Program-made: the position numbers and the translations under genes
Notes under the pieces: model-generated
Seen by the model: only the letters and a program-made list of their open reading frames with translations
What the model was told of the DNA's origin: nothing
The model's database searches: none
From: a virus
Taxonomy: Duplodnaviria; Heunggongvirae; Uroviricota; Caudoviricetes
DNA length: 13,999 bases
Direction: 5' to 3' (one strand)
Virus record (IMG/VR): IMGVR_UViG_2563366967_000002
Span: 1 to 13,999 of that record
In this document: positions 8,102-8,640 of the stretch, piece after piece
Layout: every line of letters begins with the position of its first letter
Position numbering within the stretch: position 1 is the stretch's first letter

Positions 8102-8124
8102 ATCATTTCTCCTCTGATTTTCAA

Positions 8125-8151
8125 ATTGTAAATAACATGTGCCTTGTCAGC
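8125..8151 (-). promoter_or_regulatory. Candidate promoter for the yciG operon (weak call)
   Basis: Minus strand reads ctgaca-(14 nt)-tacaat about 25 nt upstream of the yciG ATG. Spacing is short for sigma70; could be a sigmaS-type -10-only promoter. Not validated. Confidence 0.25.
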
Positions 8152-8574
8152 ACCCAATTAACTCTAGTAACAAATAAGAAAGTGTCAAATAAGAGATTGG
8201 TATGCGCATCTTAATGTGAGAAATAGCAATTGTAAAAATGTGTACTCAGTGAGTATAATCTATTGATATCTTGGTGATTAACGGAAAGTTTAGGTTGTAA
8301 CTCAAAAGATTAATAAATCTAAATTTACATTTCTATATCTTTTGATGTGTATGGCGTTGTTTTTCTCAATCAGAACATTCTAAAAAATAATTTAATTACA
8401 CGGCGGTAGTTGTTAATGTTTTTACGACTCTTCCTAATGAAGTCTGTTTCTTGGATAAATAGAGAAATTTTATCTTAAGGACTAATTACAAAAACATCTA
8501 TATAGCCACAGGAATCATTATTGTACTTAACTACAATATTTGAGAGTGAAAATTAAACCGCAGACACGGCGTAT

Positions 8575-8640
8575 GCAAGAACGTGCTGCGGTTGGATGCT
8601 ATTTTTTCCCTGAAGCGGAAAACATTACTACAGTACCTTG
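8575..8640. repeat. Direct repeat copy 1 (ybcY 3' end and downstream hairpin), matching 13935-13999
   Basis: 66 nt with a single mismatch (8592 t vs 13952 c) against the window's last 65 nt; the repeat probably continues beyond the window. Confidence 0.8.

Follow-up and report, generated by a model that had tools for sequence, protein, structure and literature searches.

Within the 13,999-nt stretch of DNA analysed here (the window), about 500 bp of AT-rich DNA separate yciG from the next gene upstream, and within this gap a promoter-like sequence on the plus strand points away from yciG. Does this sequence drive a transcript of its own, or does the gap serve the gene that lies downstream of it on the opposite strand? 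A preliminary description had proposed that the plus-strand motif gives rise to a small or antisense RNA, or that it is a silenced, H-NS-bound promoter from a previous context of the cargo. In our reading, the tract is probably the cis-regulatory region of a prophage-borne, moron-type yciG-yciF-yciE-katN operon, and the plus-strand motif is a promoter-like sequence that occurs there by chance.

The locus and the boundaries of the module

The window is the end of an Escherichia coli lambdoid prophage. Over 1.1 kb around the gap (7800-8900), it matches strains 04-00955 and VG38-53E1 with 100% identity and O157:H7 493/89 with 99.9%. The tract lies directly upstream of a set of same-strand genes whose products carry, in this order, the Pfam domains KGG, DUF892 twice and Mn_catalase (Table 1). 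The annotation of the module genes was taken from RefSeq for EDL933, Sakai and 493/89, where yciG-yciF-yciE-katN bear the tags Z1924-Z1921 in EDL933 and ECs1655-1652 in Sakai, yciG thus being Z1924 or ECs1655. The ybcY-like gene, whose homologue in K-12 DLP12 is ybcY, is the upstream neighbour and lies outside the module. The tract shares 99.6% identity with its EDL933 counterpart and is located at 1655483-1655979 in Sakai.

The basic features of the gap are as the preliminary description had them. No open reading frame of 60 or more amino acids is present for about 500 bp upstream of yciG, the longest one in any frame between yciG and the ybcY-like gene (8102-8598) having 33 amino acids; all six frames are rich in stop codons, and the GC content is 0.28 over 8101-8550. 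Small open reading frames of 20-33 amino acids, mostly with GTG or TTG starts, were considered and rejected as genes: they are devoid of Shine-Dalgarno sequences, and indels break them in other alleles. Long AT-rich upstream DNA is general among yciG loci (30-40% GC in genomes of 50-55% GC).

Table 1. Features of the window and their positions. Identities are given relative to the window allele, for the alleles L083 and L085.
Feature	Position	Strand	Basis or remark	Identity to L083	Identity to L085
3' fragment of tail-fibre-assembly gene, then hairpin terminator (left edge)	5652-5800	+	alignment to K-12 tfaD		
katN, Mn catalase	5888-6778	-	Pfam Mn_catalase, E = 5e-87; RefSeq annotation		
yciE	6797-7303	-	Pfam DUF892; RefSeq annotation		
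yciF	7340-7846	-	Pfam DUF892; RefSeq annotation		
yciG, KGG-repeat general stress protein	7919-8101	-	Pfam PF10685, E = 1e-16; RefSeq		
CDS block	5888-8101			99.5%	95.3%
Predicted 53-nt yciG leader	8102-8154	-	read from sequence		
AT-rich non-coding tract, yciG upstream regulatory region	8102-8556		no ORF >33 aa; 28.8% GC		
Leader and core promoter	8102-8190			100%	94.4%
Predicted sigma-S-type yciG promoter	8158-8188	-	consensus scan; invariant in five allele types		
Proximal upstream segment	8191-8345			92.3%	78.1%
Promoter-like motif, TTGTAA-18 nt-TATAAT	8230-8259	+	predicted start about 8265-8266		
Best-conserved block in upstream tract	8304-8338		33/35 identical in the most divergent allele, L085 (segment 78%)		
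Distal upstream segment	8346-8556			74.0%	70.1%
G+C-rich hairpin, right edge of insertion	8558-8591		probable bidirectional terminator		
ybcY-like class I SAM-dependent methyltransferase	8599-9267	-	Pfam methyltransferase domains		
Second, empty copy of the junction	13760-13999	+	marks insertion boundaries		

As the comparison with empty junctions shows, the module (about 5769-8557) is a single insertion between the stop codon of the tail-fibre-assembly gene and a hairpin, and it comprises a terminator (5776-5797), katN, yciE, yciF, yciG and the 455-bp AT-rich tract. On the left, the tfa fragment ends with a stop codon at 5766-5768 and is followed by a predicted terminator hairpin (GCCCGC, 5776-5781, pairing with GCGGGC, 5792-5797), which lies downstream of katN and is shared with this convergent gene; the same tfa fragment is annotated beside katN in L083-L085. 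At the corresponding junction in K-12 DLP12 (tfaD, hairpin, ybcY), the four genes and the tract are absent. The window itself holds a second, empty version of the junction, in which the tfa 3' end (stop codon 13902-13904), a hairpin (13919-13951) and the start of another ybcY-like 3' end follow one another. The hairpin at the right edge (8558-8591 in the window) is found in all contexts of the module and also at the empty sites, where it lies about 15-25 nt past the tfa stop codon on the plus strand.

The right-hand surroundings vary. Module and tract occur at at least four different right-hand contexts in E. coli, the neighbours being ybcY, a DUF6387 gene, a LysR regulator at the thrW site and the bio/ybhB side of the lambda attachment site; in L083, L085 and L086, ybcY is replaced by other genes. 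Of 5426 complete E. coli genomes, 382 carry the tract, which is chromosomal every time. Searches with blastn retrieved no match to it in phage and plasmid collections and no homologue outside the island in 86 loci from other genera. The comparison of filled and empty sites, together with the joint travel of module and tract through varied contexts, therefore argues that the tract belongs to the cargo rather than being a remnant of the surrounding prophage.

Lambdoid prophages can carry additional gene units with transcription of their own, known as morons, such as lom and bor. Like these, the module is self-contained, with a promoter region and a terminator of its own; it is located after tail-fibre genes, shows presence/absence polymorphism and is expressed in the lysogen under host control. 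It was inserted as a discrete unit at a phage junction that is otherwise conserved and that is empty in K-12 DLP12 and at 13760-13999 of the window, and sequence prediction provides it with a promoter (8188-8158) and a terminator hairpin (5776-5797) of its own. In contrast to other morons, it comprises four genes in one operon that runs opposite to the late genes, with a predicted promoter that would use the stationary-phase sigma factor of the host.

The predicted yciG promoter and the alleles of its upstream region

On the minus strand, and not mentioned in the preliminary description, a promoter of the sigma-S type is predicted that faces yciG. It is composed of TTGACA (8188-8183), a 16-nt spacer, a C at position -13 (8167), TAGAGT (8166-8161) and TAA (8160-8158). 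The combination TTGACA-16-TAGAGT (8188 to 8161) matches the consensus in 10 of 12 positions and in this respect equals the motif on the plus strand. The yciG transcript would start near 8154 (about 1740973 in EDL933). RpoS-dependent promoters are characteristically recognised by a C at -13 and by TAA following the -10 element. The complete arrangement TTGACA-16-C-TAGAGT-TAA does not vary between the five allele types of the module. When the yciG upstream regions of 57 loci from other Enterobacteriaceae were extracted, 52 contained TTGA[CT]-N16-18-CTAnnnTTA at 46-78 nt ahead of the ATG; the core promoter of the window, with its -35 TTGAC, C-13, TAnnnT and TAA, likewise falls within 45-80 nt upstream of the yciG ATG. 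The predicted leader contains a 5'-proximal hairpin (8153-8139, GTGCTGACAAGGCAC) and a Shine-Dalgarno sequence (AGAGGAGA) at 8115-8108. Among 47 yciG leaders from other species, most likewise have a 5'-proximal hairpin, with differing sequences and a mean fold z-score of -1.2, which is weak for the individual leader.

Five allele types of the module were compared, represented by the window, by L083/L086/L090/L091, by L084, by L085 and by L099. Among nine metagenome pattern matches, L096 was an unrelated chance match and L099 was interrupted by a Nextera adapter. Identity is 94-100% for leader plus core promoter, with 100% in L084, too, and 95-99.5% for the CDS block (Table 1), and conservation falls sharply immediately upstream of the -35 element at 8188. 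The distal segment (8346-8556) is hypervariable or mosaic, with 70-74% pairwise identity between three allele types and indels of 2-12 nt; no other part of the module is less conserved, and any plus-strand transcript would come mostly from this segment. The distal control region thus exists as three deeply diverged alleles beside near-identical genes.

An imperfect palindrome of 44 bp (8302-8345) encloses the best-conserved block of the upstream tract (8304-8338), which precedes the predicted yciG start by about 150-185 bp. The outer arms of the palindrome are unconserved, and the sequence is not a palindrome in L084 or L085. The excess conservation of the block is not significant when the number of windows examined is allowed for, and we regard it as a candidate site for a regulator or a nucleoid protein.

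The plus-strand motif and its possible products

A consensus scan recovered the plus-strand motif as it had been described, with TTGTAA at 8230-8235, an 18-nt spacer and TATAAT at 8254-8259, oriented away from yciG and toward the 3' end of ybcY. The hexamers have a spacing in the range of 16-18 nt, match the consensus in 10 of 12 positions and are not accompanied by an extended -10 TG. The predicted start corresponds to about 1741085 in EDL933 (NZ_CP008957.1) and about 1655647 in Sakai (NC_002695.2). With its perfect -10 and four of six matches in the -35, the motif would probably be active on naked DNA. The match is no better, and such sites are no commoner, than the base composition of the tract predicts: among 5000 dinucleotide-preserving shuffles of 8102-8556, a site with at least 10 of 12 matches appeared in 50% and a site with a perfect TATAAT in 16%. 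TATAAT occurs once in the tract (1.06 expected), and the region 7800-9000 contains six promoter-like sites compared with 3.7 +/- 1.9 in shuffles. The expectation that the motif would be conserved in related islands was not borne out either, as its -35, its spacer and its -10 all vary. The -10 reads TACAAT in L099 and TATAAT in the other four of the five allele types, an outcome with a chance expectation of about 0.2 at 78% identity; the spacer is one base longer in the L083/L084/L086 alleles and in L099; and the -35 is TTATAA in L085, where the 30-nt motif has 77% identity versus 78% in the surrounding segment, such that it is not conserved above background in the diverged alleles. Most likely, the motif is a chance or cryptic promoter-like sequence that would be covered by H-NS.

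Any transcript from the motif would run into the hairpin at the right edge of the insertion. Its stem is formed by 8558-8568 and 8582-8591. On the minus strand, the hairpin lies 7 nt after the ybcY stop codon, folds with -18.1 kcal/mol (z = -3.7) and is followed by TTTAATTTT. This fold and the trailing TTTAATTTT suggest a good ybcY terminator that insulates the yciG control region. On the plus strand, no run of T directly follows the hairpin. It follows the tfa stop codon on this strand at the empty sites, and the Shigella sRNA CssrB in Rfam ends in it; it probably terminates transcription in both directions. A plus-strand RNA of about 330 nt is thus physically possible, and the position of the conserved hairpin between the motif and ybcY makes a long antisense RNA into ybcY unlikely.

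One rival explanation makes the motif a real promoter of such an RNA, which would extend from about 8266 to 8591 and act as an sRNA or a cis-antisense regulator. The quality of the motif (10 of 12 positions, perfect -10), the retention of TATAAT in four of five allele types, the use of the hairpin as the 3' end of a plus-strand sRNA family in Shigella and the many sRNAs encoded by EHEC prophages (PMC4104026, PMC13502914) speak in favor of this idea, whereas the chance level of the motif, its unconserved -35 and spacer, the altered -10 in L099 and the missing T run on the plus strand speak against it. The presumed RNA itself yielded little. At the gathering score, Rfam recognized nothing in the whole window; a permissive search of 8000-8700 returned only CssrB (RF02799), a chromosome-encoded Shigella sRNA, with 25 bits versus a gathering score of 76. 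The similarity consists of the 3' terminal hairpin (CCGCAG.CACG...CGTGCTGCG) on the same strand, and apart from this hairpin and a weak 5' stem the window does not align; since the match is the shared hairpin alone and about 100 of the 180 model positions are missing, the window sequence was rejected as a CssrB gene. Folding of 8266-8610 (+) as a single sequence gave a z-score of -1.5, which is not significant, and RNAalifold applied to four alleles detected no covariation, the respective term amounting to -1.7 kcal/mol and 2 of 64 pairs being compensatory. The body of the transcript is less conserved than its flanks (70-74% with indels for 8346-8556, compared with 95-99.5% for the genes). For the limited growth conditions covered, none of the Hfq-bound EcOnc sRNAs of Sakai has coordinates in 1655400-1655999, and the ncRNA tables of EDL933, searched by locus tag, contain no entry naming Z1921-Z1926. 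A consistent downstream target is also lacking, because the neighboring gene differs between contexts. Taken together, nothing in the sequence indicates a dedicated product of the plus-strand motif, the proposal of a small or antisense RNA finds no backing in these data, and we consider an RNA regulator improbable.

Three further explanations have to be weighed against a chance motif in a control region. The plus-strand promoter could be real and act in cis on yciG as a divergent partner, by competition for RNA polymerase, by local supercoiling or by disruption of an H-NS filament. It stands back to back with the yciG promoter at a distance of about 110 bp and in the better-conserved proximal half (92% identical to L083), and a weak minus-strand site, TTTACA-17-TAAGAT (8236-8208), overlaps its -35. 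Such an arrangement is, however, not general at yciG loci (a divergent promoter-like site exists in 2 of 56 other upstream regions, with 4.0 expected by shuffling), and spacer length and -35 differ among the alleles, so that a cis-acting role appears slightly more doubtful still than an RNA regulator. Compatible with our preferred explanation, although itself as improbable as the RNA regulator, is the existence of extra minus-strand promoters that would give yciG long alternative leaders and make the tract partly a 5' UTR. Post-transcriptional control would suit a long untranslated tract, and sites matching in 9 of 12 positions are available at 8416-8387 (TTAACA-16/18-TAAATT/AATTAT) and at 8236-8208. 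These matches are weak, and similar ones would arise by chance; the former site lies in the hypervariable half, the -10 of the latter becomes CAAAAT in other alleles, and just upstream of the -35 at 8188 conservation falls off steeply. The tract might finally be a decayed gene or the remnant of a mobile element from an earlier context, in agreement with its unusual length for intergenic DNA and its foreign composition. We consider this highly implausible in view of the dense stop codons, the short longest reading frame, the missing blastn matches in phage and plasmid collections, the lack of direct repeats and the fact that long AT-rich upstream regions are usual at yciG loci.

A more speculative version, to which we would assign only a very small likelihood, makes the motif an active divergent promoter of the module: it would yield an unstructured, fast-evolving RNA of about 330 nt that ends at the bidirectional hairpin, and transcription as such, not the sequence of the RNA, would help to open the H-NS-covered region and to set the level of yciGFE-katN expression. 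If this were true, the three distal alleles would represent regulatory settings exchanged by recombination.

Control of the operon and relation to known systems

The tract is the already known regulatory region of yciGFE-katN on the EHEC prophage CP-933X/Sp8, and control by RpoS and H-NS is taken from papers on the same locus. In EDL933, RpoS dependence amounts to 137-fold for Z1924, 64-fold for Z1923 and 35-fold for Z1922 (PMC2907692). Z1921-Z1924 have been described as an operon on CP-933X; katN depends on RpoS and OxyR, and mutation of hns in EHEC raises its expression more than 450-fold (PMC5363993). According to Beraud 2010, as cited in PMC7705038, McbR/YncC binds and activates the yciG promoter of K-12. 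From these reports we infer that H-NS and McbR bind within the tract; the two transcription starts given above are likewise predictions. In the EDL933 Cappable-seq data, the start-site table for annotated genes lists neither yciG nor ybcY, probably because hypothetical genes are given on another sheet. A scan for the high-affinity H-NS motif detected several 8/10 matches, with which the tract is no more densely populated than the rest of the window, and the best match to the OxyR motif reached 11/16 (8437-8473).

These elements can be combined into a tentative scheme. RNA polymerase carrying RpoS would initiate at about 8154 on the minus strand from TTGACA-16-C-TAGAGT-TAA and produce the leader of about 53 nt. 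The remaining approximately 370 bp of AT-rich upstream DNA would most likely serve as a platform for silencing by H-NS and for counteracting factors, which in E. coli K-12 and Salmonella would be McbR/YncC. The operon would be off in growing cells, and RpoS would switch it on when cells enter stationary phase or encounter stress. The hairpin at 8558-8591 would shield the control region from ybcY transcription and halt plus-strand transcription before ybcY. The plus-strand TTGTAA-18-TATAAT would normally be silent and may fire weakly, or upon removal of H-NS.

With known yciGFE(katN) loci, the window shares gene order and gene families, the element TTGAC-N16-17-CTAnnnTTAA followed by a short leader, AT-rich upstream DNA and the RpoS dependence and H-NS repression reported for the EHEC locus. 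The core-genome copies of E. coli, Salmonella and other genera differ in that their yciG upstream DNA has no detectable similarity to that of the window, that the window YciF is only about 80% identical to theirs, and that they are located in the trp-ompW region, whereas the window locus sits at the end of a prophage. Cryptic or spurious promoters reportedly occur in AT-rich, acquired DNA that is bound by H-NS. The plus-strand motif resembles these in lying in foreign DNA of 28% GC, in having consensus-like -10 and -35 elements without a gene, at a frequency explained by composition, and in belonging to an operon that is strongly de-repressed in an hns mutant. It differs from them in being intergenic, while they are mostly intragenic, and the link to H-NS is drawn here by analogy. 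A silenced, H-NS-bound promoter is therefore a plausible description of the motif and fits both the 450-fold de-repression of katN and the AT-richness, but its proposed origin from a previous context does not agree with the finding that the tract belongs to the cargo.

In practical terms, annotation should assign the tract to the EHEC katN operon, as its promoter and silencing region, rather than list an orphan promoter or an sRNA locus; the catalase KatN has been reported to be secreted by a type VI system. Beyond correct annotation, this has little significance. As by-products, the analysis provides precise boundaries for the insertion of the module and locates a likely, predicted sigma-S promoter with its leader, and the diverged distal alleles offer a small, testable example of the exchange of regulatory regions.

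Mosaic structure of the region upstream of yciG

In the tract that precedes yciG in the inserted yciGFE-katN module, the distal half (8346-8556) occurs in three alleles whose mutual identity is only 70-74% (window compared with positions 4246-4464 of L083, and with L084 and L085, all of them other E. coli loci with the module), whereas identity in the same alleles reaches 95-99.5% over the neighbouring genes and 94-100% over the core promoter. This abrupt mosaic points to recombinational exchange of the regulatory region and not to gradual drift. The best-conserved block of the tract is the central 35 nt (8304-8338) of an imperfect palindrome, of which 33 of 35 positions are retained in the most divergent allele. 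With a distance of some 150-185 bp from the predicted start of yciG, on the upstream side, it is a candidate site for protein binding.

Features of the module and its surroundings
Feature	Position in window	Strand	Remarks
Two short ORFs	5048-5326 and 5339-5632		Left of module
tfa 3' fragment	About 5652-5768		Left of module; rest of tfa absent (region 5048-5768)
yciG leader hairpin	8139-8153	minus	
Imperfect palindrome	8302-8345		44 bp; 22-nt arms, 82% complementary
Hairpin	8558-8591; also 13919-13951		K-12 (L002): about 6113-6145
Empty junction, second copy	13760-13999		Right end of window; tfa 3' end, hairpin 13919-13951, ybcY-like 3' end

Transcript leader and a listed transcription start in the annotated katN ORF

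A hairpin near the predicted 5' end is found in most yciG leaders across Enterobacteriaceae (loci L003-L061). Its sequence differs by genus (e.g., GATACG...CGTATC, GTGAC...GTCAC, and GTGCTGACAAGGCAC) and the fold z-score averages only -1.2; the 5' stem-loop may be a conserved, stabilising element. For katN, the Cappable-seq table for EDL933 lists under 'catalase' a transcription start at NZ_CP008957.1 1739556 in all conditions. This position equals 6737 on the minus strand of the window and lies 41 nt into the katN ORF as annotated, which suggests either that katN has a secondary or internal promoter or that its start codon is mis-set.

Insertion site, prophage context and origin of the module

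The hairpin starting at 8558 is a recurring prophage terminator cassette. In Rfam it gave a sub-threshold match (25 bits) to the Shigella sRNA CssrB (RF02799), an RNA with this hairpin, in the same strand orientation, as its 3' end. Another family, IS009 (RF02111), has its matches in the 3' part of tail-fibre-assembly (tfa) genes, namely tfaD and tfaX in the K-12 locus L002 (5857-6055 and 6899-7102) and tfa in L086 (1429-1627), a further locus with the module; because of this location, the IS009 'RNA family' is protein-coding DNA from a prophage gene that occurs in repeated copies.

A contig scan of species-representative genomes (L014-L082) yielded no YciF more than 82% identical to the island copy, and the E. 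coli core YciF reaches 80%; on this comparison, the donor lineage of the prophage-borne module is not one of the representatives that were sampled. Where O157:H7 strains carry an intact tfa of 582 bp, the window retains only the 3' fragment, accompanied by two short ORFs, and the tail-fibre end of this prophage therefore differs from that of CP-933X/Sp8, the EDL933 and Sakai prophage with the same operon. The second junction lacks the katN module and has a K-12-like arrangement, so that the window contains one insertion site that the module occupies and another that is empty.
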